Shown here piece by piece: positions 22,902-47,092 of a DNA stretch of 64,000 nt (its first letter is position 1; the number at the start of each line of letters is the position of its first letter). Both the position numbers and the translations under genes were made by a program. Source of the DNA: Verrucomicrobiota bacterium (lineage in GTDB: Bacteria > Verrucomicrobiota > Verrucomicrobiia > Opitutales > Seribacteraceae); assembly GCA_036128475.1 (NCBI GenBank), contig JAYYQI010000052.1, forward strand, positions 50,065 to 114,064. The letters run 5' to 3'. The notes beneath the pieces were generated by a model. It saw nothing but the letters and a program-made list of their open reading frames with translations. It did not search any database and had not been told where the DNA came from.

Positions 22902-24128
22902 ATGTATTATGTTCTAAGTTCATTTTTCTTTTTTGGTTTCTGTTCCATCTGGGCACAACGCAATATCTCTGCATCCTCAATTTCACCTATTTCCATTAGT
23001 GAAGAAATTCGAACTTCCTGGGGAAACGACGAACCAAAAAAACTCTGGTCTTTAAATATCGGATCTGGCTTTTCCTCGGTTGTGGACATCGGAGAAAAAT
23101 CTTTCTGCCAAGGATATAAGGAAGGCAAGAATACTCTTTTTTGCGTTGAATCAACGACTGGAAAAATATTGTGGACTCATGAATATCCTTGTGCTCTTGC
23201 CGCCAAAAATTTTCGTGGAGGAAGTCGCTGCACTCCCTCGGTTTACGAAAATGTCATCTATCTTCCAAGTCATGAAGGAGATCTTTATGCATTGAATGTA
23301 GATTCTGGTAAAATAATTTGGAGCATTAATTTGGTTAGAAATTTTGGTGGGGTTCGCCCAACTTGGGGCTTTTCAGGATCGCCTCTTCTAATCGAAGGTA
23401 AGCTCATTTTGCAAACAGGTTCCCCTCAAGGTTCAGTAGTGGCTTTGGATGCTAAATCTGGAAAATTGATATGGAGAGCGGGTGCGAGACAAGCGGGCTA
23501 TGCTTCACCCGTGTTAAGAGCGAATTCTAGAGAAATTATGATTTTCAATCAGTACGGACTTTCAATGCATGACTTGGACAGTGGCAGGGAAACGAAATCA
23601 TATCAACATAAGACACGCTTTGGGATCAATGCGGCCAAACCCTTAGATTTAGGAGATAAAGTTTTACTAACCAGTGGATACGGAAAGGGTAGTGCCTTGG
23701 TAGATGTTCGTGGTTCTCAAATGCGAGAATTATGGGTTTTGGATTCGATTTCCTGCCACATATCTTCGCCTATTCAAATAGGCGGCTATGTCTATGGGAT
23801 TCATGGACAAATTGGCACTCGCTCCAGCTATGCGACTTTGTTTTGTTTGGATGTGAATAGTGCTCGTAAAATCTGGGAGGTGAGAGGTCTTGGTTTAGGC
23901 TCACTTGTTGCAGTAGGAGATATATTGGTTATTCTAACGGAGGATGGTGAACTTATTTTGGGTAAGTCGGATGGAAGAAAATTCGCCGAACTAGCCAATT
24001 TTCAAGTCCTAAGCGGGAAGGATAATTGGATACAACCTACATACTATAAGGGAAGAATGCATTGTCGGAGTAGTTCTGGAGAATGGGTTTGCCTAAAGAT
24101 GGGAGTTGAAACACAAAGGAGTGATTAA
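22902..24128 (+). CDS. Exported PQQ-binding-like beta-propeller repeat protein
   Basis: Signal-like N-terminus; repeated L.ALD..SGK..W blades; WGFSGSP, GYASP. Confidence 0.85.
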   Translation: MYYVLSSFFFFGFCSIWAQRNISASSISPISISEEIRTSWGNDEPKKLWSLNIGSGFSSVVDIGEKSFCQGYKEGKNTLFCVESTTGKILWTHEYPCALAAKNFRGGSRCTPSVYENVIYLPSHEGDLYALNVDSGKIIWSINLVRNFGGVRPTWGFSGSPLLIEGKLILQTGSPQGSVVALDAKSGKLIWRAGARQAGYASPVLRANSREIMIFNQYGLSMHDLDSGRETKSYQHKTRFGINAAKPLDLGDKVLLTSGYGKGSALVDVRGSQMRELWVLDSISCHISSPIQIGGYVYGIHGQIGTRSSYATLFCLDVNSARKIWEVRGLGLGSLVAVGDILVILTEDGELILGKSDGRKFAELANFQVLSGKDNWIQPTYYKGRMHCRSSSGEWVCLKMGVETQRSD

Positions 24129-24571
24129 CCTCCTAAGAGAGCCATTTTGGTTTTTTCCAACAATTTACAAAGCTCGCGTTTTTCACGATTGCTAAATCCT
24201 CTGGTCATACTTGACTCCAGTTCAATGGCAATTTTCTTTGCTGTATTGTATTTTTCGGTACCTTTTTCAGTTATGCCAAGAATTTTTCTTCTTTGGTCCT
24301 GCAAGCTGGATTTTCGATGAATCAATCCTGCATTTTCCATTCTCAAAACAAGGCCGGCAATATTGTTTGCATCTGTTGACATTAAACTTTTTAGATCGCT
24401 TTGGTTAAGGAACTTATCTACAGCTTCAGAAATCCATCGAAGCGCAGTGTATTGATCCGGGGTAATACCAAGAGTTACCAATCTATTGCGAAAAACTGAG
24501 TTCAACTTTATCCAACATGAACGCAGTAATGGAGGTAATTCAGCAATATCCCTATTTTTAGAAATCTCCAT
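24125..24571 (-). CDS. MarR family transcriptional regulator
   Basis: GITPDQY..L, LVLRMENAGLI.R....DQRR..L.ITEKG; divergent from the 18-gene operon. Confidence 0.92.
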   Translation of the reverse strand: MEISKNRDIAELPPLLRSCWIKLNSVFRNRLVTLGITPDQYTALRWISEAVDKFLNQSDLKSLMSTDANNIAGLVLRMENAGLIHRKSSLQDQRRKILGITEKGTEKYNTAKKIAIELESSMTRGFSNREKRELCKLLEKTKMALLGG

Positions 24572-24587
24572 ATTTTAAAAATCTGAT

Positions 24588-24617
24588 TTGACAGAATTAT
24601 ACATACAGGTACTAAAT
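24588..24617 (+). promoter_or_regulatory. Candidate promoter of the 18-gene operon in the 75-bp divergent intergenic region
   Basis: Perfect TTGACA at 24588-24593; only a weak -10 (TACTAA/CTAAAT). Confidence 0.4.
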
Positions 24618-24646
24618 GTTTTTCTTTCATACAATCTTTTTCTCAT

Positions 24647-26995
24647 ATGAGCTCCCTTAAAAAAATAAACCTACTACTCGCATCAATTTTACTTTTGGGA
24701 TTTTTGGGATGCCAAAGCGACTGGCGCGTAGCTAAATTTTCCAAGAAAATATTAGGTATTGGCGACAGGCTTCCTGATCAAACCACTGAGGCTCAGTCGC
24801 AGGTTCGTACGGATTGGTTATTTTGGAGAGGGCCCTCGGGGACTGGTTATTCGCAACAAAATGACTTTCCTATGGATTTTAACCAATCCCTTCTTTGGAC
24901 CCATGAGATCCAGGGAGGTGGGGTGCCTGTCGTTGCTGGTGGTCGCATGTATCAATTTGGATATTATGGAACGACAGAAGATCTCCAAGAAGCATTGGTA
25001 TGTTTTGATTCGAGTTCAGGGAAAGTTTTATGGGAAAGACGACATAGTGACTTTATTAGTGATATCGTCTATAATCGATATGGTGTCGGGGCTGCATGCG
25101 TAGACCCATCTAGCGGAAATGTCTTTTTTCAAACAAGTCCAGGAGTGCTTGTAGGTTATGATCGTGATGGTTCATTACTGTGGGAACGGTCGCTGATGGA
25201 GGAATTTGCTCGATTAACTTTTCCAAATGGTCGAACAGGTGGTCCTTGCGTGGACGAAAACCTAGTAATCATCCACGCTATAACTGCAAACTGGGGTAAA
25301 CAAGGACCGGCTCGGGATCGTTTCTATGCATTCGATAAAGAAACAGGTAAATTGGTTTGGGTCTCAACTCCTGGAATAACACCCAAAGACAGCTCTTTTG
25401 CCCCTCTGATTTTCGAAGATCTTCCAGATGGCAGAAGAGTCTTTTATAGTGGAACCGGATGTGGTCATGTTGTTTGCATAGACGCACGTACGGGGCAACC
25501 GCTTTGGCGTTTTCAAATGTCGTATGGTGGGGTCAATGCCGGAGTGGTTATACATGAAGATACAATCATAGCCGTGCACGGAAAGGAAAACATTGATACA
25601 TCTGTAATTGGCAGAATGGTAGCGATTCGTAAGCCAAGAAATTTACCTTCTGTAGGAGAGGATATTATGATTTTGGGTAAGGAGCACGAGGTTTGGAGAA
25701 ACAACCGAATGGAATCCTTCACCAGCACACCTGTGTACAATGCAAACCGTCTTTACTGCACAATTAAACGCGGAGAGCTTATCTGTCTGGACGCAAATAC
25801 TGGCAAACAAATTTGGCATTTGAAGCTTGCTCCCGATCAAATTCACGCCTCGCCAACAATGGCAGGTGATACACTTTTTGTACCGATGTTTAATGGGAAA
25901 GTTTTCATTGTGAAAGACGAGGGCCAAGAGCCTAAGGTTTTAAGTGAAATGGATCTTGGTTCAGCCTGCTTGGCTGCACCGGCTATTGCCCATGGAAAAG
26001 TTTTCGTCCAGTCAAAAAAGAAGTTGTATTGTTTTGGTGCAGCTGATTCTTCGCCTGCGTTTATAAGCTCGCCTTTGAAGCAATTTAATTCAACGGGTCC
26101 AGCGGTTTCTCTGCAAGTTGTCCCCGCTGAGTTTGCTTTACTTGCGGGAAAAAGCGAAAGATTCGAAGTTTTCTCTCTAGATTCTGCAGGTCGCCGAATA
26201 GAAAAACTGGAAAAAGGTTTGACTTGGGAAAAGTGGGTTCCACCCACGGCAAAAGTTCAATCGAAGGTGGACGCGACTATTAGTCAACAAGGTATACTTA
26301 CCGCAGAACCAGATGCTCTTTTGTCGGCTGGAGCGATTAAGGTTTCAAGTGGATCGCTTAGTGGAGTTACCAGAGGGCGCGTCATTCCAAATTTACCTTA
26401 CAATGAAAATTTTGAGGATGGTTTTGCGTTTCAGCATACGAGTTCCGATCAAATATCCTTTTCATATCCTCCTTTACCGTGGTTGGGGGCTAGGATGAGG
26501 TGGCAAGTTCAAAAAATGGGAGAAAATACTGTTGCGGGAAACACTCTTGACCGAGTCTTATTCCAACGAGCCATTAATTTTCTGGGTCATAAAGATATGA
26601 GCAACTATACGATGGAAGCAGATGTAATGACGGACGGAGATCGCAGAATCAAATCGAATGTCGGACTTATCAACCAAAGATATATCTTTGTTCTTGTTGG
26701 AAATAGCCAAAAACTGGAAGTTGTCTCGAACTTTGATAGATTTCGACACTCAGTTCCCTTTTCAATCAGAACCAATACTTGGTATCGTCTTAAAACACGC
26801 GTTGATCTTGCTTCTTCAAATACAGGAGTTATAAAAGCGAAAGTTTGGCCCAAAGAAGAAGAAGAACCAGATTCTTGGACCTTAGAAGTTGAGCACACTA
26901 ATGCTCATGTTAAAGGTGCTCCGGGTATATATGCAATGTCTCCTCAGAGTAAGAAGAAAGTATACATAGATAATATTTCCATAAGCCAGAACTAA
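24647..26995 (+). CDS. Lipoprotein: PQQ-like beta-propeller + Ig-like linker + C-terminal concanavalin/DUF1080-like domain
   Basis: Lipobox FLGC, WRGPSGTG, repeated D..TG...W blades, C-terminal YTMEADV...WYRLK..KVWP..EPD.W. Confidence 0.8.
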   Translation: MSSLKKINLLLASILLLGFLGCQSDWRVAKFSKKILGIGDRLPDQTTEAQSQVRTDWLFWRGPSGTGYSQQNDFPMDFNQSLLWTHEIQGGGVPVVAGGRMYQFGYYGTTEDLQEALVCFDSSSGKVLWERRHSDFISDIVYNRYGVGAACVDPSSGNVFFQTSPGVLVGYDRDGSLLWERSLMEEFARLTFPNGRTGGPCVDENLVIIHAITANWGKQGPARDRFYAFDKETGKLVWVSTPGITPKDSSFAPLIFEDLPDGRRVFYSGTGCGHVVCIDARTGQPLWRFQMSYGGVNAGVVIHEDTIIAVHGKENIDTSVIGRMVAIRKPRNLPSVGEDIMILGKEHEVWRNNRMESFTSTPVYNANRLYCTIKRGELICLDANTGKQIWHLKLAPDQIHASPTMAGDTLFVPMFNGKVFIVKDEGQEPKVLSEMDLGSACLAAPAIAHGKVFVQSKKKLYCFGAADSSPAFISSPLKQFNSTGPAVSLQVVPAEFALLAGKSERFEVFSLDSAGRRIEKLEKGLTWEKWVPPTAKVQSKVDATISQQGILTAEPDALLSAGAIKVSSGSLSGVTRGRVIPNLPYNENFEDGFAFQHTSSDQISFSYPPLPWLGARMRWQVQKMGENTVAGNTLDRVLFQRAINFLGHKDMSNYTMEADVMTDGDRRIKSNVGLINQRYIFVLVGNSQKLEVVSNFDRFRHSVPFSIRTNTWYRLKTRVDLASSNTGVIKAKVWPKEEEEPDSWTLEVEHTNAHVKGAPGIYAMSPQSKKKVYIDNISISQN

Positions 26996-27012
26996 TCCTT
27001 TAATTATATCAA

Positions 27013-28530
27013 ATGAAGTTTTATAAATCATATTCTCTAGCATTATTGTTTCTAAGTCTATCCTTAGTGGTGCACGGCAAAGATTGGCCGACCTGGGGTG
27101 GTAATTCTTCACGCAACATGGTCTCTGTCGAAAGTCAAATCGTTATGGATTTTAATCCTGGCGAAATGGATGACGATGAAAAGGTCGATATGTCCACGAC
27201 CAAAAACATAAAATGGGTAGCAAAATTAGGCTCTCAGGCATACGGAAATGTAACGATCTCTAATGGTAGGGTTTTTGTAGGCACCAACAATGAATCTCCA
27301 AGAGACGAGGGTAAAAAGGGAGATCGTGGTGTAGTCATGTGTTTTGATGAAAAAACAGGAGATTTAGTATGGCAACTTGTTATCCCTAAGCTCGGTGCCG
27401 GTAAAGTCAGTGATTGGGAATACATCGGAGTATGCTCTTCACCAGCCATTGAAGGGGAGCGAGTCTATGTTGTGACCAACAAGTGCGAGGTTGTCTGTTT
27501 GGATATACAAGGATTCGCAAACGGAAACGACGGTCCCTTTGTCGATGAAGCAAACTATGTTCGCCCGAAAGGAACACAGGACGCTCTTAATAAAAAAGTG
27601 GATGCGGATATTTTATGGATGTATGACATGCGAGATGAATTGGGAGTTTTTCCTCATAATGTGACGAGTTCCTCTCCCTTGATAATTGGTGATTCACTCT
27701 TTGTTGCGACATCCAACGGAGTCGATTGGTCTCATACCAACATTCCAAGTCCTCTTTCGCCAAGTTGGATTGCACTGGATAAGAATACTGGTGAATTAAT
27801 AGGAGAAGATGGCTCTGGGGCGAGTGCGGGTGCATTACATGCGGCATGGTCTTCATTGACCTATGGCAAAATCAATGGAGAAGAGATTCTTATTTGGGGG
27901 GGAACGGATGGCTATTGCTACGGCTATCACAACAAGACTCAGAAAGATGCAGACGGATATGACCTTTTCCAACCCAAATGGAAAGTTGATTGTAATGAAT
28001 TAAGCTATCGAAAGGACAAGGATGGGAAGAAGATTCCATATGCCACACCACCGGGACCTAGTGAGCTTATTGGAACACCCATTCTTTACGAAAATAAGGT
28101 TTATTGTGCAATAGGCCAAGATCCTGAGCATGGAGACGGCGTTGGTAGGCTTACTTGCATTGATGCATTGAGTGGTAAAGTTCTTTGGAAATATACCGAT
28201 GTCGGAAGAACGATCTCAACTGCATCGGTTCACGAAGGGTTAGTCTACCTAGCTGAATATGCAGGCATTATACATTGTCTCGATGCAAACACTGGAGAAG
28301 TATATTGGCAGCACGATTCATTCAGTCGAATTTGGGGCTCCACATTGGTTGTTGATGGAAAGGTTTTGCTTGGTAACGAGGATGGTGATCTGCTCATTCT
28401 AGACCATGGTAAAAATAAACCAAAGGTTACGAACGTCAATATGGGAGCTCCTGTTTACAGTTCTCCAGTGGTGGCTAATGGAACTCTTTATGTTGCGACC
28501 CAAACCCACCTCTATGCGGTTGGTAAATGA
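27013..28530 (+). CDS. Exported PQQ-binding-like beta-propeller protein
   Basis: Signal peptide, DWPTWGG..RNM, NIKWVAKLGSQAYG, repeated propeller blades, terminal SSPVVANG.LYV. Confidence 0.87.
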   Translation: MKFYKSYSLALLFLSLSLVVHGKDWPTWGGNSSRNMVSVESQIVMDFNPGEMDDDEKVDMSTTKNIKWVAKLGSQAYGNVTISNGRVFVGTNNESPRDEGKKGDRGVVMCFDEKTGDLVWQLVIPKLGAGKVSDWEYIGVCSSPAIEGERVYVVTNKCEVVCLDIQGFANGNDGPFVDEANYVRPKGTQDALNKKVDADILWMYDMRDELGVFPHNVTSSSPLIIGDSLFVATSNGVDWSHTNIPSPLSPSWIALDKNTGELIGEDGSGASAGALHAAWSSLTYGKINGEEILIWGGTDGYCYGYHNKTQKDADGYDLFQPKWKVDCNELSYRKDKDGKKIPYATPPGPSELIGTPILYENKVYCAIGQDPEHGDGVGRLTCIDALSGKVLWKYTDVGRTISTASVHEGLVYLAEYAGIIHCLDANTGEVYWQHDSFSRIWGSTLVVDGKVLLGNEDGDLLILDHGKNKPKVTNVNMGAPVYSSPVVANGTLYVATQTHLYAVGK

Positions 28531-28548
28531 TAGGGTTACGGAGGTAAC

Positions 28549-28761
28549 ATGGGAAAATCATTAGTTTGGGGTCTTTTTGTAATTCTTTTTTTTCTGCATC
28601 AAGATTTCTGGTGGTGGGATGACGCTGACTTAATCTTTGGCTTTATGCCCATTGGTCTTGCTTACCATGCAGGATTTTCTATGGCTTGTGCTTTCCTTGG
28701 GTGGCTTGCCATTTCCTATGCATGGCCGCATGATTTAGAGAAATTTGCGGAAGAAGAATAA
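28549..28761 (+). CDS. Small membrane protein, DUF3311-like SSS transporter accessory subunit
   Basis: 70 aa, two TMs, LHQDFWWW..FGFMPIGLAYH; immediately upstream of the SSS symporter. Confidence 0.8.
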   Translation: MGKSLVWGLFVILFFLHQDFWWWDDADLIFGFMPIGLAYHAGFSMACAFLGWLAISYAWPHDLEKFAEEE

Positions 28762-28797
28762 AGTAACAATTCAATCTATCCATTTTAAGGAAATGAA

Positions 28798-30495
28798 ATG
28801 ACCACACTCTCCGTAATCATTGGATACCTTTGCCTCTTACTTGCATTGGGTTTTTTTAGTAACCGTTTGTTTCGAGGAACCAGCAAGGATTATTTTGTGG
28901 CCAGTCATAGCATTGGTCCATTCCTCTTATTAATGAGTGTTTTTGGTACGACCATGACAGCATTTGCTCTCGTTGGTTCTACTGGAAAATCCTTTGAGCG
29001 CGGGATTGGAACCTATGGATTAATGGCTTCTATTAGCGGTCTGGTACATGCAGCCATTTTTTTCCTGATAGGCATTAGACTCTGGGCCTTTGGTAAAAAA
29101 CATGGATTCATTACCCAAATTCAATTCTTCCGTGCTCGTTTCGAATCAGACTCCATTGGCTACCTACTTTTTCCAATACTTGTACTATTGGTTATTCCCT
29201 ATCTTTTGATTGGAATTATTGGAGCCGGTAAAACGATCGAACCGGTAACCGCGGGTGCATTTCCAGCTTTATTCACGAATCCCACGGCACCCCAATGGCT
29301 TGGGGGTGTGCCTCCATGGCTTACGGGTCTTGTGGTCTCTTTAGTGGTTCTAAGTTATGTCTTTATGGGTGGCTCCAGAGGTGCGGCCTTCGCAAACACT
29401 TTCCAAACCATAGTATTTATGATTATGGGCTTAGTTGCCTTTACTTTTATTATAAATGCCTTGGGAGGGATAGATAATGCAGGCAAGGTACCGGCACGCA
29501 TCAATGAAAAAGGCATTATTGTTCAAGATTTTCGGTTCGATAAAGAGAGCGGCCTGCTGCAGCAAAATGATCCGCCTAAAACTATCGGGCGTGTTATTGC
29601 ATCGGAAAATTCAGATTTCACCGATAAGCAACCTCATTTTTGGCGAGAGCCTATTGCGGTTGAATTTAAAACTAAAAACCGCAAAACCGGCGAACTTGTT
29701 CCATTCGAAAGGGAATTGGGTATTCCATTCATTACATTTGTTACCTATTTATTTATTCCACTCAGTGTTGGAATGTTTCCTCATTTGTTTCAACATTGGC
29801 TTACCGCAAAAAGTGCCAAATCCTTTAGACTTACTGTCATTGCCCATCCGCTCTGCATAATGGTCGTTTGGGTTCCTTGCGTTTTGGTTGGCGCATGGGC
29901 GAGTGGAGTGCTTCCTGCAGGTATTCCTCCTCCTGCGGTCCTTTCTGCAATGCTCAATCTTTTAGTTGGAGACCCGGTTCTAATTGGACTTTTAACGGCT
30001 GGAGTCCTAGCTGCAATTATGTCTTCGCTAGATTCACAATTTCTTTGCCTAGGCACAATCTTTACAAATGACATTGTCATTCATCGTGCAGGAAAAAACA
30101 AATATTCAGATAAACAGATTATCTTCATTGCCCGATGCTTCATTATTGCGATTGTAGCCTTAACCTACGGTCTTGCCATGCTCGCCAAGGATGCGAATGT
30201 TTTTGATCTGGCAATCTGGTGCTTTAGCGGATTTTCGGCACTCTTCCCAGTTGTTTTCGCAGCACTTTATTGGAAGAGAACTACTAAAGAAGGAGCGATT
30301 GCAAGTGTTCTAGCTGCACTTTTCAGTTGGTTGTATTATTTTCATGAATCAGGATATGGAGGAGAATATATGGTCGGACCAGGAATAGTACCTGCTGCGA
30401 TCTGTTTTGGTGCATCAGCTTTAGCATTGGTATTGGTCTCCCTTTTCACCACTCCTCCTTCGAAAAAAACGATAGAAAAATTTTTCCCAAAGTAA
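28798..30495 (+). CDS. Sodium:solute symporter (SSS family)
   Basis: DYFVA, many TMs, AAIMSSLDSQ, ALYWKR. Confidence 0.92.
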   Translation: MTTLSVIIGYLCLLLALGFFSNRLFRGTSKDYFVASHSIGPFLLLMSVFGTTMTAFALVGSTGKSFERGIGTYGLMASISGLVHAAIFFLIGIRLWAFGKKHGFITQIQFFRARFESDSIGYLLFPILVLLVIPYLLIGIIGAGKTIEPVTAGAFPALFTNPTAPQWLGGVPPWLTGLVVSLVVLSYVFMGGSRGAAFANTFQTIVFMIMGLVAFTFIINALGGIDNAGKVPARINEKGIIVQDFRFDKESGLLQQNDPPKTIGRVIASENSDFTDKQPHFWREPIAVEFKTKNRKTGELVPFERELGIPFITFVTYLFIPLSVGMFPHLFQHWLTAKSAKSFRLTVIAHPLCIMVVWVPCVLVGAWASGVLPAGIPPPAVLSAMLNLLVGDPVLIGLLTAGVLAAIMSSLDSQFLCLGTIFTNDIVIHRAGKNKYSDKQIIFIARCFIIAIVALTYGLAMLAKDANVFDLAIWCFSGFSALFPVVFAALYWKRTTKEGAIASVLAALFSWLYYFHESGYGGEYMVGPGIVPAAICFGASALALVLVSLFTTPPSKKTIEKFFPK

Positions 30496-36808: not shown

Positions 36809-37354
36809 ATGAATGCTTCAACTCTTCCAGATATACTTTATCCTCTTAGTTTTATACGTAGTGCGAGGGGGTTACCAAAATTAAGGTATGAGAATCTAAA
36901 TCCAGAAGATTTACCCGAACCCTACCAAACTCTCTTATTCCATGAAGGGGATATGACTTCCCGCCTTGAGGCATATCACGAATCCCCTCTCCAGGTAAAA
37001 ACTCTCAATAGCTCAAATGATGGGAAAAAATATTTTCGTGAAGTTATTCTTAATTCCACAAATTCCGGAAAACCCACGGAGTATGGGGCTATTGAAATAC
37101 AATTAAATTCTCTCCCAGATGATGTCTGTGAGAAAATCAAGGAAGCTCGAAAACCCCTTGGTGGGATACTTAATGAGTACAGGATACCTTATTCCAGTTC
37201 CCCTCGAGGATTCCTGAAAGTAACCCCGGATGGACCCATAATTGATGCCTTTGGAGAAGTGGAATCTGATTACCTTTATGGTAGAAGTAATCAGATTTCT
37301 GGATTTAATCGGGAAACCATTGCTCGGATTGTGGAAATTTTACCAGCGTTATGA
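36809..37354 (+). CDS. Chorismate pyruvate-lyase-like protein (UbiC/DUF98 fold)
   Basis: LL.H.GDMT..LE, REVIL, EYG.I.I, PLG.IL, R..IVEIL pattern typical of the chorismate lyase fold. Confidence 0.7.
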   Translation: MNASTLPDILYPLSFIRSARGLPKLRYENLNPEDLPEPYQTLLFHEGDMTSRLEAYHESPLQVKTLNSSNDGKKYFREVILNSTNSGKPTEYGAIEIQLNSLPDDVCEKIKEARKPLGGILNEYRIPYSSSPRGFLKVTPDGPIIDAFGEVESDYLYGRSNQISGFNRETIARIVEILPAL

Positions 37355-38676: not shown

Positions 38677-39971
38677 AGCTCGCTTTTCTAACTCCCGGAA
38701 CGGGTAATTATTACTGCGGAGTATGCATGCGGGACAATTCACTTGCCCGGCAATTGATTGTTCTTGGGCACGAGGTTACTATGCTGCCCACCTATCTGCC
38801 ACATTTTCTAGATGAGGAAGAAGCAACTTCCGATGAGCCGATTTTCTTTGGTGGTATCAATGTTTATCTCCAACACAAGTTTTCTTTATTTCGTCATACG
38901 CCAAAATGGGTAGATAAAGCTTTTGATAACAAATGGCTTTTACGCAAAGCTGCTGCCCGCAGCGGGATGACCTCAAGCAAAGACTTGGGTGAAATTACCC
39001 TATCGACATTTCGCGGAGAAGACGGACCTTTGGTTAAGGAAGTAAGAAAGGTCCTTGATTGGTTTAAGACCCAGGGAATCCCGGATGTAATTTTTCTTTC
39101 TACGATCATGCTTGCCGGTATCGGAAAGGTTTTGAAAAGGGAGCTCAAGGTTCCGGTCTATGGTTTTTTGCAGGGTGAAGATTCATTTCTTGATTCGCTC
39201 CTTCCTGAATACCGAGTGGAAGCATGGAAACTTCTTTCCAGTGATGTTGCCAAGTTGAATGGTTGTATTGCACCAAGTCAATATTTCGGAAATCTTATGG
39301 CTGAACGCCTCCAACTGGAACCCGAATGTGTTAAATTCCACCCAAATGGTATAACTACGGAAGGAATCACTCCCGCCGAAGAGCCACCTAAGGTTCAAAC
39401 TTTGGGGTATTTAGCAAGATTATGCCCACTAAAGGGTTTAGACTTATTGGTCGACGCATTCATAGTACTCAAAGAATCTCCCAAGTTTTCGGATTTGCGT
39501 TTAGAAATTGCAGGGGGCATGACATCCGAAGACGAACCTTATGTTGATGACCAGCACAGGAAACTAGTACAAGCCGGACTCTCCGATTATTTTTCCATTC
39601 ATCCAAATTTGGATCGTGAACAAAAATTGAAATTTCTTAAATCCCTCTCGGTATTCTCCGTACCTGCTAGGTATCCAGAAGCTTTTGGCCTTTATGCTGT
39701 TGAGGCAATGGCATCGGGGATCCCCGTTGTTTTGCCATCCGAGGGAGCTTTCCCTGAATTAATAAATACCACGCAGGGTGGTTGTGTTTATGATGCTACA
39801 AAATCTGGAGCTCTTTTAGATGCATTGGAATCCTTGTTGGATGATCCGACTAAAGCCAAGGAAATGGGATTGTTGGGACATCATGCTGTTGCTCAAAATT
39901 ATGCCAATGAAAATCTCGCCTCTCGACTTGTGGAGGAAATTATCTCTCCTTCACAACACGCTAAAATCTAA
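38673..39971 (+). CDS. Glycosyltransferase family 4 with N-terminal YCGVC motif
   Basis: GYLARLCPLKG, EAFGLYAVEAMASG, N-terminal PGTGNYYCGVCMRDN. Confidence 0.88.
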   Translation: MKLAFLTPGTGNYYCGVCMRDNSLARQLIVLGHEVTMLPTYLPHFLDEEEATSDEPIFFGGINVYLQHKFSLFRHTPKWVDKAFDNKWLLRKAAARSGMTSSKDLGEITLSTFRGEDGPLVKEVRKVLDWFKTQGIPDVIFLSTIMLAGIGKVLKRELKVPVYGFLQGEDSFLDSLLPEYRVEAWKLLSSDVAKLNGCIAPSQYFGNLMAERLQLEPECVKFHPNGITTEGITPAEEPPKVQTLGYLARLCPLKGLDLLVDAFIVLKESPKFSDLRLEIAGGMTSEDEPYVDDQHRKLVQAGLSDYFSIHPNLDREQKLKFLKSLSVFSVPARYPEAFGLYAVEAMASGIPVVLPSEGAFPELINTTQGGCVYDATKSGALLDALESLLDDPTKAKEMGLLGHHAVAQNYANENLASRLVEEIISPSQHAKI

Positions 39972-39980: not shown

Positions 39981-40406
39981 ATGAGTACTGAATTTTCTAT
40001 TACCCGACGGGTTGAATTTTCCGAAACCGATCTGGCCGGAATCATGCACTTTACCAATTTTTATCGTTGGATGGAGATTTGCGAACATGAGTTCCTTCGC
40101 AGTCTCGGACTATCGGTGGATATGGAAGATGAAAACGGTCGCTTTGGATGGCCACGGGTTAAAACATCGTGTCGCTTTAAGCGCCCCTTGCGTTTTGAAG
40201 AAGAGGTTGAAGTGAAATTGATTATTACCGAGATTCGGGATCGCTCGATTGCTTATGCCTTTCAATTTTGGAAAGATGAGGACGGGGAGCGGGTCAAAGC
40301 GGCAGTTGGCGAAGTGGTAGCTGCCTGCGTAAGGTTCGATCAGGCAAGTGGCTCAATGACCCCCATCATGATTCCAGAAGTGGTTAAGTCAAAGATCTCT
40401 CCTTAA
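39981..40406 (+). CDS. Hotdog-fold acyl-CoA thioesterase (4-hydroxybenzoyl-CoA thioesterase/YbgC family)
   Basis: RVEFSETDLAGIMHFTNFYRWME, F..PLRF. Confidence 0.88.
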   Translation: MSTEFSITRRVEFSETDLAGIMHFTNFYRWMEICEHEFLRSLGLSVDMEDENGRFGWPRVKTSCRFKRPLRFEEEVEVKLIITEIRDRSIAYAFQFWKDEDGERVKAAVGEVVAACVRFDQASGSMTPIMIPEVVKSKISP

Positions 40407-40459: not shown

Positions 40460-40975
40460 ATGCATTATTTACAATTCGCTTTTTTAACGGTTATTTGCTG
40501 GGGAACCTATGGGGTCTGTATGCATATCGGATCAAGTAACATGGGAGACAAGGAGAATGGTCGAATTATGGCATTCCTATGGGTGGGCTTAGCCTATTTC
40601 TTAACGGCAGTGGTGGCACCCCTGATCATTTTGAAACTTAAAGGGGGCAATATCGCTTTCTGGACATTTCCGACTAAGGGTTGGCAGTGGTCGCTGATTG
40701 CAGGAACCTTGGGTGCGATTGGAGCCTTGGGTGTTTTACTAGCTTTCGGTAAGATGCCATCACCAGCCTATGTGCCGGTAATCATGTCCGTTATTTTTGC
40801 AGGTGCTCCGATTGTAAACGCAATTGTGAGTACGACCAAAGAGGGAAACTGGCCTCATGTGAAACTCCCTTTTATTCTGGGAATTGCGATGGCTGCAATC
40901 GGAGGTTACTTGGCTACCAAGCATGCCCCGAAACCTCCGAAAGTGCCGCCTGCTGCCGAGTCGACAAAATCTTAA
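40460..40975 (+). CDS. Small multi-TM membrane protein (DMT/EamA half-like)
   Basis: Approximately five hydrophobic helices; WGTYG, AG.LGA.GA, FAGAPIVN. Confidence 0.7.
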   Translation: MHYLQFAFLTVICWGTYGVCMHIGSSNMGDKENGRIMAFLWVGLAYFLTAVVAPLIILKLKGGNIAFWTFPTKGWQWSLIAGTLGAIGALGVLLAFGKMPSPAYVPVIMSVIFAGAPIVNAIVSTTKEGNWPHVKLPFILGIAMAAIGGYLATKHAPKPPKVPPAAESTKS

Positions 40976-40990
40976 GGGGAAAAGTTCTCA

Positions 40991-42274
40991 ATGAGCGAAA
41001 CCTCCCGAGACCATGAAGTGGTGACAAGGTGGGAGCGTAAGCGTTGGGCTGATTTTAAGGAAAATCTTTCCAAAGTCTCGGAATCAAATCAATTTCAGCA
41101 AAAACATATTGATGCACTTTACTCATTAAATGAGTGGGATTGTTTTGCAGATTTTCTAAACGCCTGCCCGTTTACTGAAAAAAAGAATCTGACTATGGAT
41201 CGGGAAGAGCACCCGCCTTATGGATCGAATCTGACTTTTCCTATTTCCGATTATAAGAAATTCAATCAGACCAGCGGAACTCAAGGTATGCCTATGGCTT
41301 GGTTGGATACGATGGAGGATTGGAAATGGATGCTTGGAAATTGGGATCAGGTATTGGAAGCTGGAGGAGTACACCGCGGAGCCCGATGTTTTTTTGCATT
41401 CTCTTTTGGTCCCTTTCTTGGTTTTTGGACGGCATATGAAGCAGCTACTCAGAGGGGTTGCGTATGCATTCCTGCAGGAGGGCAGAGTACGGAGCAACGA
41501 TTGCATAGTATTATCAAACAAGAAGCCGAGCATTTATTTTGCACACCTACTTATGCTATGCGTTTGACCTCTTTTGCTGAGGAATCAGGAATCGATCTTT
41601 CAGGTCATGTATTGAAATCAATCATTGTGGCTGGCGAAACTGGCGGAAGTTCACACGAAGTGAGAAATCGAATCATTTCAGCCTGGGCAAAAGGTATGAA
41701 AATTCAGGATCATTATGGAATGACGGAAGTCGGGCCGGTAGCCTATGAAACCCCAGGAGGGCAGGGTGGCTTGAGGATTATTCTAGATTCTTATTATCCT
41801 GAAGTCATTGATCCGAAAACCCTTGATTCTGTTAATGATGGAGAGAGGGGCGAGTTGGTGCTAACAACACTTGGCCGAGTGGGTTGCCCAGTCTTTCGAT
41901 ACCGAACGGGCGATCTTGTAAAAGCACGACAGGGTTACGATCAAAACGGTTTGCCCACTTTTGACCTTGAAGGAGGTATACTTGGGCGGACGGATGACAT
42001 GGTAGTGGTAAGGGGGGTAAATCTCTATCCTTCAGCGGTTGATTCCATAGTCACCCGTTTTCCTGAAATCAAGGAATACCAAGTGATTTTTGAAAACCGT
42101 GATTCCATGATGGAAGCAAAAGTAAAAATCGAATGTGAAGAGAATATGTCTTCGGTATTGGAAGCTTCCCTGCAGGAATCTTTTTCTTTGCGTATTCCGG
42201 TTGAGATTGTCGAATCAGGATCTTTACCTCGTCACGAAATGAAAGCAAAGCGCTGGATCAAATCGGACCAATAA
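40991..42274 (+). CDS. Phenylacetate--CoA ligase (PaaK)-like aryl-CoA ligase
   Basis: QTSGTQG, TPTY, AGE, YGMTE, YRTGD, GRTDDM..VRGVNLYP. Confidence 0.88.
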   Translation: MSETSRDHEVVTRWERKRWADFKENLSKVSESNQFQQKHIDALYSLNEWDCFADFLNACPFTEKKNLTMDREEHPPYGSNLTFPISDYKKFNQTSGTQGMPMAWLDTMEDWKWMLGNWDQVLEAGGVHRGARCFFAFSFGPFLGFWTAYEAATQRGCVCIPAGGQSTEQRLHSIIKQEAEHLFCTPTYAMRLTSFAEESGIDLSGHVLKSIIVAGETGGSSHEVRNRIISAWAKGMKIQDHYGMTEVGPVAYETPGGQGGLRIILDSYYPEVIDPKTLDSVNDGERGELVLTTLGRVGCPVFRYRTGDLVKARQGYDQNGLPTFDLEGGILGRTDDMVVVRGVNLYPSAVDSIVTRFPEIKEYQVIFENRDSMMEAKVKIECEENMSSVLEASLQESFSLRIPVEIVESGSLPRHEMKAKRWIKSDQ

Positions 42275-42286
42275 TAATTTGTAAAA

Positions 42287-42979
42287 ATGAATAAGATGAT
42301 AGAAATCTCTAACCTGTCAAAATCCTTCCCTTCTCCGGATGTGGAGGAGATTGTGCGTGTATTTAGTGGGGTTGATCTTGTGGTGGAAGAGGGCAGTTCG
42401 ATTGCGATCGTGGGACCGTCTGGCTCAGGCAAGAGTACACTTCTCAATATCATTGGCCTGCTAGACAAGCCGAGTGCTGGAAAAATCATAGTCGATCAAA
42501 AAGATTTGACTCGATTACATGAAGCAGAAGTTTCTGAGTACAGGAATCAGACCGTTGGGTTTGTATTTCAAGCTCATCATCTGCTTCCTTCTTGTACGGT
42601 TCTTGAGAATGTAATGCTGCCCGGATTGGCAGGTTTTGGCACGAAAGCTAATGGAGAATTAAAGGATAGGGCTAATGACCTATTAAAAGAAGTTGGGCTC
42701 GGGCATCGCGTCACTCATCTACCAGGGCAAATTTCCGGAGGGGAGAGACAACGGGTGGCCATTGCCCGCTCATTGATCAATCAACCTTCGGTACTTTTGG
42801 CAGATGAGCCTACGGGTGCCTTAGACAGAAAAAATTCCGAGCATCTGGTCAATTTGCTCAAGGAACTGAACGAACAGAGATCTCTGACGTTAGTAATGGT
42901 AACTCACTCTATAAGCAGTGCGAGCCAGATGAAACAAGCCTACCATTTGGACGAGGGCAGTTTAACGCGGGAGAGATAA
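42287..42979 (+). CDS. ABC transporter ATP-binding protein (LolD/MacB type)
   Basis: GPSGSGKST, ISGGERQRVAIAR, LADEPTGALD, VTH. Confidence 0.95.
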   Translation: MNKMIEISNLSKSFPSPDVEEIVRVFSGVDLVVEEGSSIAIVGPSGSGKSTLLNIIGLLDKPSAGKIIVDQKDLTRLHEAEVSEYRNQTVGFVFQAHHLLPSCTVLENVMLPGLAGFGTKANGELKDRANDLLKEVGLGHRVTHLPGQISGGERQRVAIARSLINQPSVLLADEPTGALDRKNSEHLVNLLKELNEQRSLTLVMVTHSISSASQMKQAYHLDEGSLTRER

Positions 42980-45900
42980 TGAGTCTTTGGCAGGTAATCG
43001 GAAGAAACCTACTTTTTTTCCGCCGGCACAACCTTGGGATCATTCTGGCGGCCGCCATGTGTTCCCTCGTATTGACGGGTGCTTTGACGGTCGGGGATTC
43101 AGTCCGTGCCACCCTTCGGAGTTTGGCTGAACAAAGAATAGGAAAGGGAGATATTGCCATGCTTTCCCCCGACGGTTTTTTTGAAGAGGATTTGGCGACC
43201 CGTATCCATGATGGACTAAATGACGAACAAGCAGTTATTGCCCCCATTGCATTATTCCGGGGTATGATGACATCTCCGGATGGATCAGTACAGGCGGTCA
43301 ATGTACAGGTTCTTGGAGTTGACGAGAGATTTTGGCAGCTTGCTCCGGAATTCGCTTATACTCCCATGGGCACATGGTCGATGGAAAAAGAGTTTAGTGA
43401 ATGGAGCTCAAATGTCTTCTTCGTAAACGAACGTTTGGCCAAACGCCTAAAAGCAGAAGTGGGAGACCGCCTAATCTTAAGGATGGAGGAGCCAAGTTTG
43501 TTTTCAAGAGACGCGCCTCTATCAGGTGAGCGAGACAATAAGTTTGTTACAATGAATGAAGAATTTGGAGGTATTGTTTCGGCGAATGGATTTGGTAATT
43601 TTGGTTTGCAGGGAAATCAACGGGAACCACTTACCGTTTTTGTTTCGCTAACAGCCTTGCAAAAGAAATTGTTTCGATCCTTGGACGAAATTTCCGGTAG
43701 TACCAGTTTTGCCAATTTTCTTCTAATCGGAAAGGGGGGCAAAGGAGAAATTGATTTGGTAAAGGCAAAGAAGGCAATGGATGAAAGTTGGAAACTTGCA
43801 GATGCAGGCATCGAGATAAAGGATTTGAATAGTTCTAGTGAATGGAGCATTCGAACCCGGCAAGTATTTTTATCTGACGGTTTGGTTGCTAAGGGTAGAA
43901 GTCTGGATTCCAAAGCAAGCGGAGTCCTGACCTATTTGGTAAATGCGATCGAAAAGAGTTCGGAGGGCAATGGAAGTGCACTGATACCATATTCGATGAT
44001 TTCAGCCGTGGAACCCAGGAAGGTATCATTTTTAGACGAACAATGGCAGGATGATCAAATTGCCCTTAATCAATGGGCGACTGAGGACCTGAATGCATCG
44101 CTAGGCGACAAAATAAACGTTAGCTTTTACACCGTTGGAGAAAGAAGAAAATTGATCGAAGCATCGAGAAACTTTGTTTTGGGAAAAATCCTACCTTCAC
44201 CCAGTCCTTTATCTAAAGATCAGGAGAGTGATTGGACTCCAAGATTTCCAGGTCTTTCGGATGCGGAATCTTGCGGGGAATGGGATACAGGCATTCCAAT
44301 TGTGCATAAAGTGCGAGATCGAGACGAAGACTATTGGGATCAATATCGTGGTACTCCCAAGGGCTTTATCTCACTTAAGGCAGGGCAAGAAATGTGGGGT
44401 AATCGATGGGGCTCTCTTACTGGTTTGCGCATAGGTAAAACTGAATATTCCAGAGAAGAACTGACTTCCAAATTACGAAAAAACCTAAAGGCTGAGGATG
44501 CGGGTTTGGTTCTTCGTGGATTACGCTTGGATGCCAAACAATCGGTTGAATCACCAGTGGACTTTGGACAGCTCTTTATGGGATTTAGTTTTTTCGTGAT
44601 TGCTGCCGTTCTTGCGATAACGGGAATGCTCTTCAATTTTTCACTGGAACAGCGAAGCGGGCAGATTGGATTGCTACGAGCACTAGGTTGGAAAACGCAA
44701 AGAATAAAAAGGGTGTTTTTGGGAGAGGGGTTGTTCGTTGCCTTTGCAGGTTCTGCGGTTGGAGTATTTTTGGCTTCAATTTATGGAAAAGTAATCCTTG
44801 AACTTTTGAGTGGAAAATGGAGTGGGGCGGTTTCGGGCACTCGTTTTGATTATGATGCCACAGTAAGCTCAATGATTGTGGGTGGGGTGTCTTCATCCAT
44901 TGTATGTTTTCTATCCATGTTTTGGTCAGCGAAGAAATTGTTGAATCGTGAACCGAGAGAGCTTCTGCATTCTGGTAATGAGGGAATCCAAAATGAATCT
45001 TCGATGGGATCTTCATCAAAATGGTATCAATGGGTGGGAATCTTTTGTATTGCTGGAGCGATAGTCTTGGCATGGTCAGTTGGGCTGACAAGCCATCAGG
45101 CCTCCATGACTTTTTTTGGAGCAGGTGGACTCCTTCTGATAGGGGGGATGTTCTTATTTCGATTTAGTCTGGGAAGGAGAATTACAGGTAATCATAATAT
45201 AGCAAACCCTTCCCAACTTTTTCGTAGAAACCTGAATCGAAGGAGGGGCAGAGGATTAGTAACAGTCGGTGCGATGGCTGCAGGAACATTCTTAGTTGTG
45301 AGTACAGGGGCTTTTCGCAAAGCACCTGATGTTGGGCACGATAATTTCAAGTCAGGGACTGGCGGCTTTTCCTTTTGGGGAGAATCTGCTTCTCCCATAT
45401 ATGATGACTTAAATGGCAGGGAAGCCGCTGAGCTTTTTGATTTAAACAAAAGCCTGTTTTTAGATGCCAAAGTTATTCCTCTTCGTGTTCGGGAAGGGGA
45501 TGATGCGAGTTGTTTGAATTTAAACAAAGCGCTTCGTCCAAGAATTTATGGAATTAAGCCTAGTGACTTTATTGGTAGATTTGAATTTACGGAAGGTAAC
45601 TGGACGACCCTAAACAAAAAGATTGAGGGGAATGTCGTACCTGCTCTTGTTGATCAGAACACAATGTTATGGGCATTAAAAATGGGACTTGGTGATCGCA
45701 TCCAATTTATGGATGGAGAAGGTAGACCCTTTGAGATCGAATTGATGGGTGCCTTCAAGGGATCGATGTTACAGGGTGCTCTCTTCATTAAGGAAGAAGA
45801 TTTCCTGAACAAGTTTAAGCAACAGGGTGGATATCGTAGTTTTATGCTTGCCGGAAAATTTGAAGATGGGCAGATGTTAGCCAATCATCTGGAGGATCGA

Positions 45901-46350
45901 ATGTATCAGCATGGAATGGAATTTAGAGAATCCAGAGAAAGGCTTACTGAGCTCCAAACTGTGGAGAATACATATTTGTCAATTTTTCAGGGTTTGGGTG
46001 GCCTCGGGATGTTGATAGGAACTTGTGGGTTAGGTCTAGTTGTTGCTCGCAATCTTGTTGAAAGAAGTAACGAAACGGCCCTTTTGGAAGCCTTGGGATA
46101 CAGGCTCGAAAACATACGAAAGTATGCCCTGTTGGAACATGTGCAATTAGCCTTTTGGGGGATTGCCATAGGCTCTACATCGGCAATTCTTGGTATTGCC
46201 CCTGCCTTGTTTGGCGGAGTAACAGATAAGCCTAGTACAGGCTTCTTTTGGTTCTTTATTGCATTAACCTTGCTTGCTTTTTTCTGGGTTTACCTCGCCG
46301 TTTTCTTGACCTTACGAAAAAGCCAGCTTCATTTGTTGAAGAATGAATAA
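42979..46350 (+). CDS. Large duplicated FtsX/MacB-type ABC permease
   Basis: Two FtsX-like TM modules (R..QIGLLRALG; R..ETALLEALG) with large periplasmic loops; TAATG-coupled to the ATPase. Confidence 0.88.
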   Translation: MSLWQVIGRNLLFFRRHNLGIILAAAMCSLVLTGALTVGDSVRATLRSLAEQRIGKGDIAMLSPDGFFEEDLATRIHDGLNDEQAVIAPIALFRGMMTSPDGSVQAVNVQVLGVDERFWQLAPEFAYTPMGTWSMEKEFSEWSSNVFFVNERLAKRLKAEVGDRLILRMEEPSLFSRDAPLSGERDNKFVTMNEEFGGIVSANGFGNFGLQGNQREPLTVFVSLTALQKKLFRSLDEISGSTSFANFLLIGKGGKGEIDLVKAKKAMDESWKLADAGIEIKDLNSSSEWSIRTRQVFLSDGLVAKGRSLDSKASGVLTYLVNAIEKSSEGNGSALIPYSMISAVEPRKVSFLDEQWQDDQIALNQWATEDLNASLGDKINVSFYTVGERRKLIEASRNFVLGKILPSPSPLSKDQESDWTPRFPGLSDAESCGEWDTGIPIVHKVRDRDEDYWDQYRGTPKGFISLKAGQEMWGNRWGSLTGLRIGKTEYSREELTSKLRKNLKAEDAGLVLRGLRLDAKQSVESPVDFGQLFMGFSFFVIAAVLAITGMLFNFSLEQRSGQIGLLRALGWKTQRIKRVFLGEGLFVAFAGSAVGVFLASIYGKVILELLSGKWSGAVSGTRFDYDATVSSMIVGGVSSSIVCFLSMFWSAKKLLNREPRELLHSGNEGIQNESSMGSSSKWYQWVGIFCIAGAIVLAWSVGLTSHQASMTFFGAGGLLLIGGMFLFRFSLGRRITGNHNIANPSQLFRRNLNRRRGRGLVTVGAMAAGTFLVVSTGAFRKAPDVGHDNFKSGTGGFSFWGESASPIYDDLNGREAAELFDLNKSLFLDAKVIPLRVREGDDASCLNLNKALRPRIYGIKPSDFIGRFEFTEGNWTTLNKKIEGNVVPALVDQNTMLWALKMGLGDRIQFMDGEGRPFEIELMGAFKGSMLQGALFIKEEDFLNKFKQQGGYRSFMLAGKFEDGQMLANHLEDRMYQHGMEFRESRERLTELQTVENTYLSIFQGLGGLGMLIGTCGLGLVVARNLVERSNETALLEALGYRLENIRKYALLEHVQLAFWGIAIGSTSAILGIAPALFGGVTDKPSTGFFWFFIALTLLAFFWVYLAVFLTLRKSQLHLLKNE

Positions 46351-47092
46351 ATTACTATCCGAGTTTGCGAGGGAAAACTTTATGGTTTTCTTTTGCGTTC
46401 TATTTTTACTGGCATCCGGTTGCGTGCATCACAGTTCAAAAAATAAAACTCCGAAAAGCTCCATTCAGATCGATTCTTTAGACCAAGGAAAAATAGTAGC
46501 CGAGCAAGCCTGGAAACTGGAATTCAGCGAGGACTTTTCAGGTGTCGATGTTGGTGCTGAACCAGAAAATATTTTTATTTTGGATGGCGAATACACGGTG
46601 CAAAAAGAGAGGGATGACAATAAATGCCTAACGCTACCTGGAACTCCAATGGGAGATTTTGGCTTACTTTTCGGACCCAGGGAGAGGGAAAAACCTTTGG
46701 AACTAAACTTTGCTTTTTTTGCGACTAAAAAAGGTCGTCGTATGCCTTCAATCGCTGCAAGTATAGGAGGCGTAAGAGGGTATCGACTGAGGCTAAACCC
46801 TGCGGCTAGAAATATAGTAGTCTCCATGCATGAAACGGTTCTTAAGCAGTTATCTTTTGTATGGGAAGGTGACCAGTGGTGGAGGATCCGATTTCAAGTC
46901 ATTCCGGTCGCGACTAAAGAAGCGACTAGATTGCAATTCAAACTTTGGCCAAAGGCACAAAATGAACCAAAGGAATGGGTTTTATGTGAAGAGTTTGATA
47001 TTGAGTACACGGGGGGAAAGTGTGCTCTTTGGGGCTTCCCTTATTCAAGTACACCCATCCTTTTTGATGATATTGCAGTTCTCTCCAACTAA
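46343..47092 (+). CDS. Lipoprotein with concanavalin/DUF1080-like beta-sandwich domain
   Basis: Lipobox LASGC; WWRIRF...KLWP...EP..W resembles the C-terminal domain of 24647-26995. Confidence 0.7.
   Translation: MNKLLSEFARENFMVFFCVLFLLASGCVHHSSKNKTPKSSIQIDSLDQGKIVAEQAWKLEFSEDFSGVDVGAEPENIFILDGEYTVQKERDDNKCLTLPGTPMGDFGLLFGPREREKPLELNFAFFATKKGRRMPSIAASIGGVRGYRLRLNPAARNIVVSMHETVLKQLSFVWEGDQWWRIRFQVIPVATKEATRLQFKLWPKAQNEPKEWVLCEEFDIEYTGGKCALWGFPYSSTPILFDDIAVLSN

Follow-up and report, generated by a model that had tools for sequence, protein, structure and literature searches.

Gene content of the operon

An operon of 18 genes lies at positions 24647-47092 of the window, a 64,000-nucleotide stretch of contig JAYYQI010000052.1 from a Verrucomicrobiota bacterium with a 1.95-Mb genome (G000). 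All 18 open reading frames (ORFs) are intact and on the + strand, including one of 70 amino acids (28549-28761). Intergenic distances range from -8 to 53 bp, with four overlaps when the start of the aldehyde dehydrogenase (ALDH)-like gene is taken as 31622, and a gene for a MarR-family regulator (24125..24571, - strand; PF01047) is divergent from the first operon gene. This layout agrees with the initial annotation, which had described 18 co-oriented genes with gaps of at most 53 bp, several overlaps and a divergent MarR gene. GC content within the operon is 42-46%, against about 40% in the surroundings, and no operon gene has a close second copy in G000, which is 80% complete. The gene set is real, conserved and uncharacterised: a new combination of known enzyme kinds.

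We label the genes, in order, PQ1, PQ2, small ORF, SSS, Ehp, ALD, ADH, PQ3, SAM, LYA, HAL, GT4, TE, DMT, PaK, ABC, PERM and LEC; PQQ0 is an extra propeller gene (22902..24128, + strand). Their neighbourhoods elsewhere were counted in two sets. The close loci are the neighbourhoods within 10 kb of the best 80 of 326 Ehp relatives from a scan of species-representative genomes (70-96% identical), where contigs are often cut. The distant loci surround 80 relatives kept from 563 metagenome matches (53-60% identical to Ehp in the printed matches), many of them on short contigs.

Three operon genes and PQQ0 encode predicted exported beta-propellers resembling those that bind pyrroloquinoline quinone (PQQ). 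PQ1 (24647..26995; PF13360) is a predicted lipoprotein, with a lipobox-like N-terminus and C-terminal domains in addition to the propeller. The structure model of PQ2 (27013..28530) is an 8-bladed propeller (pLDDT 90) closer to YxaL and BamB (Z 34-35) than to PQQ dehydrogenases (Z 27-28), and its sequence scores far below PQQ-dehydrogenase cut-offs. A His, an Asp, a Glu, an Asn and a Trp are invariant in all 50 PQ2 sequences aligned; judging from secondary structure and blade topology, they should lie in loops that share one face. PQ3 (34313..35458) is ACSF4/AfsK-like (PF13570, 204 bits, above the cut-off), with a Cys in a GGCD motif that is invariant in 37 of 37 sequences. PQQ0, which we regard as an accessory member from PF13360 and synteny, is convergent with the MarR gene here, heads the operon in G001 (a genome from another family of the same order) and stands behind the lyase in several Chthoniobacter-like loci.

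Among the aromatic genes is a predicted two-protein carboxylate reductase. Ehp (30528..31616), an EhpF/GriC-like adenylating enzyme, aligns to EhpF over its full length and to the same C-terminal end (E 2e-42). ALD (31622..33055), an EhpG/GriD-like acyl reductase of ALDH fold, keeps the ALDH Asn and Cys and has lost the general-base Glu (alignment to KauB; motifs in homologs), and shares 26% identity with the protein that follows EhpF in a Pantoea phenazine cluster (pairwise E 6e-40). Such an ALDH-fold partner adjoins Ehp in 55/80 close and 67/80 distant loci. In support of the GriC/GriD-like label of the initial annotation, the pair is EhpF/EhpG-type by sequence, and it is predicted to reduce an aryl acid to the aldehyde. 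An excerpt of PMC10179220 describes GriC/GriD as adenylating and reducing 3-amino-4-hydroxybenzoate to the aldehyde. The operon pair shares with GriC/GriD (grixazone, Streptomyces griseus) and EhpF/EhpG (D-alanylgriseoluteic acid, Pantoea agglomerans) the adjacency of an adenylating enzyme and a Glu-less ALDH-fold reductase. It differs from them in forming a separate, highly conserved clade, in being joined to a lyase, a halogenase, a glycosyltransferase, an ATP-binding cassette (ABC) system and propellers, and in having no phenazine or aminohydroxybenzoate synthesis genes: unlike at the Pantoea locus, none of the core genes phzA/B, D, E, F and G is among the operon families. EhpF-like domains are fused to aldehyde-using enzymes in two outside relatives, P0171 (class III aminotransferase; Streptomyces records) and P0223 (zinc alcohol dehydrogenase). 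A natural Ehp-ALD fusion was sought in three long homologs and not found; P0171 gave no partner match, P0223 the zinc enzyme and P0240 no family.

LYA (36809..37354) is a chorismate-lyase-fold protein, with Atlas matches to chorismate-lyase/Rv2949c-like clusters (TM 0.71-0.74), the labels of which are the only place where Planctomycetota appeared. It had no match in Pfam or NCBIfam, a PDB sequence search with it was also empty, and the hhalign probability of its alignment to UbiC is only 54%. Across 31 aligned homologs, however, M35, T36, R77, E78, P114, G116, G140, R141 and E156 of UbiC are kept without exception, L115 in 30 and R127 in 22 (E. coli numbering with Met1); we take R77, E78, M35, L115 and E156 to have active-site roles in UbiC. 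The residue pattern favors the earlier label, chorismate-lyase-like protein, and LYA is predicted to be a 4-hydroxybenzoate (4-HB) synthase.

HAL (37390..38676; PF04820) is a flavin-dependent halogenase-like enzyme with GxGxxG and WxWxIP motifs (WFWYIP in all 20 sequences listed) and the aligned Lys. It is nearest to CndH/PltA-type enzymes and matches the Trp-halogenase family and no FMO family. Halogenases of the CndH/PltA type act on thioester-bound substrates. Because they do so and the operon has no carrier gene, the simplest reading is that HAL would act on a coenzyme A (CoA) ester that PaK forms and from which TE would release the acid. PaK (40991..42274) is a PaaK-like aryl-CoA ligase by its family matches, and TE (39981..40406; PF13279) a 4HBT-family hotdog thioesterase whose top PDB match is named 4-hydroxybenzoyl-CoA thioesterase. 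SAM (35455..36792) is a HemN-like (class C) radical S-adenosylmethionine enzyme, a predicted methyltransferase, with CxxxCxxC and GGGTP motifs and matches to HemN and NocN; it scores below all HemN/HemW cut-offs and is distinct from the other HemN-family gene of G000.

Bmp5 is a single-component, FMO-type enzyme. The bmp clusters and the baaA-baaB pair of another PVC bacterium, Planctomycetales strain 10988, likewise set a chorismate-lyase-like gene beside a flavin halogenase with no megasynthase; 3,5-dibromo-p-anisic acid is attributed to baaA-baaB, a proposed lyase and halogenase pair that is genetically untested (10.1101/723874). BaaB, known here by that paper's description only, is ~44% similar to Bmp5 (10.1101/723874), whereas HAL is of the Trp-halogenase/CndH/PltA type. 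The paper names no reductase, glycosyltransferase or transporter at the baaAB locus, and the acid there is not reduced (10.1101/723874).

At four loci a displaced HAL gene (L110:14766-17328, L111:3004-5596, L112:10834-13462 and L114) directly follows a gene that we take to be cation/proton antiporter-like, and three of them also have a LysR-like regulator; such pairings are known from clusters for halogenated natural products. Another cluster, L089:9086-13715 (G203:C56), holds a paralogous SAM (41%) and HAL (40%) pair with a large ORF and an antiporter-like gene.

SSS (28798..30495; PF00474) is a sodium:solute symporter and likely imports an acid precursor; the 70-residue membrane protein at 28549..28761, which adjoins the symporter in 35/80 close loci, is likely its accessory subunit. 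A major facilitator superfamily (MFS) gene is found in or beside the SSS position in 21/56 loci, its best (sub-cutoff) match being the aromatic acid/H+ symporter family. That an aromatic-acid-type MFS takes or adjoins the SSS place suggests that the acid precursor can be imported too. ADH (33077..34306; PF00465) is an iron-containing alcohol dehydrogenase, and DMT (40460..40975) a small DMT/EamA-like membrane protein with at least four hydrophobic segments and a weak PF00892 match (E 0.005).

GT4 (38673..39971; PF00534) is a family 4 glycosyltransferase in which C15 and C18 of an N-terminal CxxC, as well as E344, are invariant in 49 of 49 sequences. ABC (42287..42979; PF00005) is a LolD/YbbA-like ATPase. 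PERM (42979..46350) is a single-chain type VII ABC permease that combines two FtsX units (PF02687 twice) and two periplasmic domains; its model (pLDDT 86) has YbbAP as top Foldseek match (E 5e-16). LEC (46343..47092) is a predicted lipoprotein that also follows the permease in L081, L137, L162, L163 and L165. The likeness to YbbAP-TesA of Escherichia coli lies in the single-chain type VII permease and in a transporter encoded with periplasmic partners. PERM differs in having only 11-14% identity, larger periplasmic domains, and propellers and a lipoprotein as partners, with no TesA-like hydrolase family in the family scan of the operon. YbbP presents hydrophobic molecules to a periplasmic enzyme, according to an excerpt of PMC12646458. 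Because PERM is YbbP-like and the operon contains neither a MacA nor a TolC gene, the predicted transport points to periplasmic hand-off rather than secretion.

Most family labels of the initial annotation stood, namely three PQQ_2 propellers, SSF, AMP-binding/EhpF, ALDH-like, Fe-ADH, radical SAM, halogenase, GT4, 4HBT, PaaK-like, EamA-like (weakly), ABC and FtsX. The label 'lectin-like' for LEC did not, as LEC matched no family in Pfam and NCBIfam scans. Also as annotated, the operon lacks a polyketide synthase (PKS), a nonribosomal peptide synthetase (NRPS) and a carrier protein; no ketosynthase, NRPS or carrier-protein family was found in the 17 larger ORFs scanned, the 70-residue ORF lying outside the scan.

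An aromatic module joined to a more widespread envelope core

The order of all 18 genes is identical in G001, with PQQ0 in front and the divergent MarR gene missing. Because the same order recurs in another family, the cluster is more than a chance assembly. The closest relatives are Opitutales-type Verrucomicrobiota records, and the close loci carry PQ2 (65/80), PQ1 (62/80), ALD (55/80), ADH (47/80), SSS (39/80), a MarR gene divergent from PQ1 (35/80), SAM (28/80), LYA (26/80) and HAL (20/80). Ehp was found in 67/76 genomes of the host family, including 26/26 near-complete ones, in 69/101 genomes of the order of G201 (a complete 10.5-Mb chromosome, Limisphaerales record), and in 3/200 near-complete genomes sampled across the phylum. 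Records and sequencing runs of host-family relatives indicate seawater. No published description of this gene set was found in the literature searched, which covers few subscription journals; within this scope the result agrees with the earlier statement that no characterised pathway with the whole set is known.

Farther away, the reductase keeps different company. The distant loci carry ALD (67/80), GT4 (39/80), ABC (26/80), PQ1-like genes (19/80), PERM (18/80) and PQ2 (16/80), and more rarely TE (8/80), ADH (6/80) and PaK (5/80). The source labels of 10 distant proteins that were looked up include Pyrinomonadaceae, Vicinamibacterales, Calditrichia and one Acidimicrobiia, with several lacking a taxon. 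In loci with proteins that group with Pyrinomonadaceae and Vicinamibacterales records, a propeller accompanies the reductase pair, GT4 and ABC, and in Acidobacteriota-type loci the genes for reductase, GT4 and ABC are immediate neighbours. No relative was found on viral contigs, and a plasmid search returned 29 records, all below 60% identity and none of this clade.

Some records call for separate mention. At L094:9444-12559 (G202:C7) the SAM, LYA and HAL genes are in pieces, through sequencing errors or decay. Eight loci titled Bifidobacterium or Akkermansia muciniphila (L043, L052, L058, L044, L047, L071, L076 and L079) hold copies that are 70-75% identical; the neighbouring genes are of verrucomicrobial type, and the titles look wrong.

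The 101-genome order sample separates two tiers. LYA is present in 68/69 Ehp-positive against 3/32 Ehp-negative genomes, and HAL in 64/69 against the same 3/32, which, with the full order in G001, bears out the expectation that these genes co-occur in other genomes. For GT4 and for PERM the counts are 66/69 Ehp-positive and 12/32 Ehp-negative genomes. Every one of the 72 genomes that have aromatic genes also has GT4 or PERM (65 have both), and 18 genomes have neither tier. Orthologs of SAM and PaK were not found in five envelope-only genomes, including the single-contig G320, and a PQ2 ortholog was found in three of these five. PQ3 abuts GT4 in three reductase-negative loci, and ABC and PERM stay paired, often with LEC. 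Among 14 phylum genomes fetched, PQ3-GT4-ABC-PERM is contiguous in six reductase-negative loci and GT4-ABC-PERM in three more. The aromatic module is therefore less widespread than the four-gene core PQ3-GT4-ABC-PERM, and dependence between the two goes one way (72/72).

The core also tracks exported propellers. PQQ0-type propellers occur in 23/200 phylum genomes, comprising 17/17 GT4-positive and 6/183 GT4-negative ones; the positive genomes span about a dozen families, with contrasts within families f18 and f22. In the order sample, a first-look count that is a loose proxy, taken over kin that are not independent, gave 9-75 propeller candidates (median 36) in the 72 aromatic genomes, 13-80 (median 24) in the 11 core-only genomes and 0-9 (median 2) in 17 of the 18 genomes with neither tier, or medians of 6.7, 5.0 and 0.5 candidates per Mb. 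DUF1552 served as a control for general expansion of Planctomycete-type families. Five GT4-positive genomes, among them G001 with its full operon, gave no DUF1552 match and two others gave one, which weakens the idea that the GT4-propeller link is a mere by-product of such expansions. The confound remains within the order, where DUF1552 was also not found in five GT4-negative genomes.

In G089 the core ends a long run of propellers, a radical SAM gene, a DUF116-polyprenyl synthase gene, a squalene-cyclase-like gene and Fe-S/NuoF-like redox genes; to judge by its genes, this run is another satellite of the system, of terpenoid and redox type. The squalene-cyclase-like gene is present in 19/200 phylum genomes, all propeller-positive, and in 54/101 order genomes, including none of the 18 without the core; it was not found in G000 or G001. 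Substitution of the terpenoid for the aromatic module was considered and rejected, as both are present in 47/72 genomes. In an excerpt of Santana-Molina et al., planctomycete enzymes resembling squalene-hopene cyclases are suggested to make non-hopanoid triterpenes (PMC7306690). The G089 run (G089:C3:39000-66100; L255, L256) also has genes for a membrane 4Fe-4S protein, NuoEF-like proteins and a 2Fe-2S/FAD oxidoreductase, and similar genes occur in L258, L260 and L267.

A palindrome shared by the operon and displaced blocks

A 20-bp imperfect palindrome with the core TAC-N6-GTA is present in 36/36 MarR-PQ1 spacers. In the window it occupies 24596..24615, directly 3' of a TTGACA hexamer (24588-24593), and we predict that it is the MarR operator. 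The pattern was derived from those 36 spacers, and sites elsewhere are the test. Beyond the training spacers it scores ahead of PQ1 in seven further loci, and it precedes displaced operon blocks in G201 and G280. In G201 the cluster is split into halves separated by 2 Mb, and the chromosome has exactly two sites of the strict pattern, each preceding one of the halves; a reversed control pattern gave three matches there, so the evidence is in the positions of the sites and not in their count. G280 has three sites, one before PQ1, one before the displaced CoA ligase gene (PaK) and one weak and unrelated, and in each of G203 and G204 a single strict site precedes PQ1. Because the palindrome precedes operon and displaced blocks alike, these genes likely form one regulon, and the MarR protein likely represses the operon, presumably by binding the palindrome. 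The link to MarR that had been suggested for this locus is backed by the conserved palindrome in the divergent spacer. A scan of G000 gave only weak further sites (at most 16.5 bits against 24.9), none ahead of a related gene, and none of the 45 distant metagenome loci listed at 7 kb or more showed the palindrome. A promoter scanner called no + strand promoter in the MarR-PQ1 spacer.

Proposed pathway and competing explanations

We propose that the operon makes or imports 4-HB, decorates, reduces and glycosylates it, and hands the product to periplasmic propellers, a reading that we put at roughly even odds (about 0.5). Gene order, linkage, palindrome, motifs, folds, two-tier spread and GT4-propeller link are observations; the chemical steps and the hand-off are all inferred. 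LYA would convert chorismate to 4-HB, or SSS or the MFS protein would take 4-HB up, as their families lead one to expect. PaK would activate 4-HB as the CoA ester, on which HAL could halogenate and SAM C-methylate the ring, and TE would release the acid. Ehp and ALD would then adenylate and reduce it to the aldehyde, with ADH as an optional route to the alcohol. The alcohol step looks optional because GT4 directly follows the reductase in distant relatives, where ADH is found in 6/80 loci against 39/80 for GT4; the same numbers tell against benzyl alcohol as the fixed step of the annotated route. Among the most speculative steps is glycosylation of the reduced product by the CxxC-bearing GT4. 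Most speculatively of all, ABC-PERM might extract the glycoside, and PQ1, PQ2, PQ3 and their paralogs might bind it as ligand, cofactor or modifying group. Envelope-only genomes might use another aglycone (many have the cyclic-terpenoid module) or salvage one.

Several observations weigh against this proposal. Near the distant reductases HAL and SAM were each found in 2/80 loci and LYA in 1/80, and because these genes are so rare there, some of the hosts may use a substrate other than 4-HB. The reductase clade stands well apart from other EhpF-like representatives in a quick tree, and specificity is therefore not transferable to it. HAL also has matches to QhpG, LodB and GoxB below cut-off, and its family includes hydroxylases. 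The strict palindrome is absent from G123, where operon genes are present, and HAL is displaced without a palindrome in four genomes. GT4 or PERM occurs without any aromatic gene in 11/101 order genomes, GT4 is found in 17/200 phylum genomes of which only 3 have Ehp, and the core also adjoins the unrelated terpenoid-cyclase and redox module; because GT4 is kept without aromatic genes in many genomes, it may act on something other than the aromatic product. The genome counts, moreover, are not phylogenetically independent, and the propeller counts share this weakness.

A broader version is more doubtful, though still worth considering: that the operon supplies the large orphan family of exported PQQ-like propellers of Verrucomicrobiota, Acidobacteriota and related phyla with an undescribed aromatic cofactor, which it would synthesise, glycosylate and deliver. 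In it, the CxxC-GT4, the YbbAP-type ABC system and PQ3 would be a general loading platform for an aryl or cyclic-terpenoid aglycone, and platform-only genomes would be salvagers. Many PQQ users are salvagers.

It is rather unlikely, in our judgement, that one regulator here governs two separable functions, namely uptake, activation and reduction of aromatic acids (to scavenge or detoxify them) and, independently, work in the envelope, where GT4 and ABC would synthesise or move a glycolipid or else modify the propellers. An importer, a CoA ligase, a thioesterase and a MarR regulator are typical of aromatic-acid handling, the SSS/MFS exchange takes place next to the reductase, the envelope core is found without aromatic genes and beside the terpenoid module, and the nearest folds to PQ2, BamB and YxaL, are scaffold-like. 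Yet a chorismate lyase is biosynthetic and is present in 68/69 reductase-positive order genomes, the family scan found no ring-cleavage gene in the operon, the one-way dependence (72/72) ties the two tiers together, and reductase, GT4 and ABC adjoin one another in Acidobacteriota-type loci. Unlikely as well is the route favored by the initial annotation, in which a core-less pathway of secondary metabolism ends in secretion of a hydroxybenzyl glycoside bearing halogen or methyl groups, while the propellers stand by or assist uptake. All the enzyme types that it requires are present and co-inherited, a planctomycete dibrominated 4-HB derivative is attributed to a proposed lyase and halogenase (10.1101/723874), and the DMT-like protein could export a small glycoside. 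However, the reductase gene is present in 26/26 near-complete family genomes and is single-copy in G000, and such presence suits a housekeeping-like product of the envelope more than a specialised metabolite for secretion. GT4 and ABC, taken by the annotation as simple last steps of the 4-HB pathway, persist in genomes without lyase, halogenase or reductase and track the propellers; the rarity of ADH beside distant homologs and the YbbP-like PERM, with MacA and TolC missing from the operon, also speak against secretion of such a glycoside. A gastrodin-like secreted product is accordingly less likely than periplasmic delivery.

We give very little credence to a role of LYA in supplying 4-HB for a respiratory quinone whose head group the other enzymes would tailor. 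The UbiC fold and residues of LYA would suit it, as would the methylation of menaquinone by class C radical SAM enzymes (MenK), but the operon family scan found no prenyltransferase, E. coli UbiA finds only a 53-residue match (E 0.003) in the 80% complete G000, and the three UbiA-family genes of that genome are presumably heme O synthase-, MenA- and EboC-like, from sequence and neighbours. The EboC-like gene and its putatively labelled neighbours form an apparent ebo-type cluster (L169, G000:C45:12015-15437). Clusters of the ebo type encode another orphan pathway of PVC bacteria with a link to export into the periplasm.

Two known kinds of system resemble the operon in part. Mycobacteria make p-hydroxybenzoic acid derivatives and phenolic glycolipids with the Rv2949c lyase, FadD22 and glycosyltransferases. 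The likeness is in an Rv2949c-like lyase fold, an aryl-acid ligase and glycosylation in an envelope context; the operon differs by having no PKS, a glycosyltransferase of another family, a carboxyl group that would be reduced rather than extended or esterified, and a halogenase and propellers without counterpart. Aryl polyene, xanthomonadin and flexirubin clusters resemble the operon in an aryl-CoA ligase (PaK has a FlxY match below cut-off), a hotdog thioesterase, a halogenase-like enzyme, a glycosyltransferase and envelope trafficking. In contrast to them, the operon has no ketosynthase or carrier protein in its 17 larger ORFs, and a carboxylate reductase replaces chain extension.

If the proposal holds, propellers without a known job are tied to one glycosyltransferase, one transporter and one aromatic pathway, which offers a direct route to their function: seek the ligand. 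Because the reductase gene is in every near-complete host-family genome examined and records of relatives point to seawater, the pathway could be a steady and unrecognised source of halogenated aromatics. For biocatalysis it would supply two further tools, a natural two-protein aryl-acid reductase and a CoA-ester halogenase, from a gene set that cluster miners built around core synthases overlook.

One RNA-Seq run that has 5% of words in common with the operon gave short contigs in 17/30 bins and another gave none; these contigs are uninformative on strand, level and co-transcription, and were not used as evidence. After a short gap, the co-oriented run continues past the operon into a DUF1592/DUF1588 cytochrome-c-like gene and a DUF1552 gene on the same strand (46830-50802), the former likely starting near 47131 rather than at the listed 46830; G001 has no such DUF1592/DUF1552 neighbour after its operon. 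Upstream of PQQ0, at 21155-22839 and also on the same strand, lie genes for an extracytoplasmic function sigma factor and a likely anti-sigma factor.

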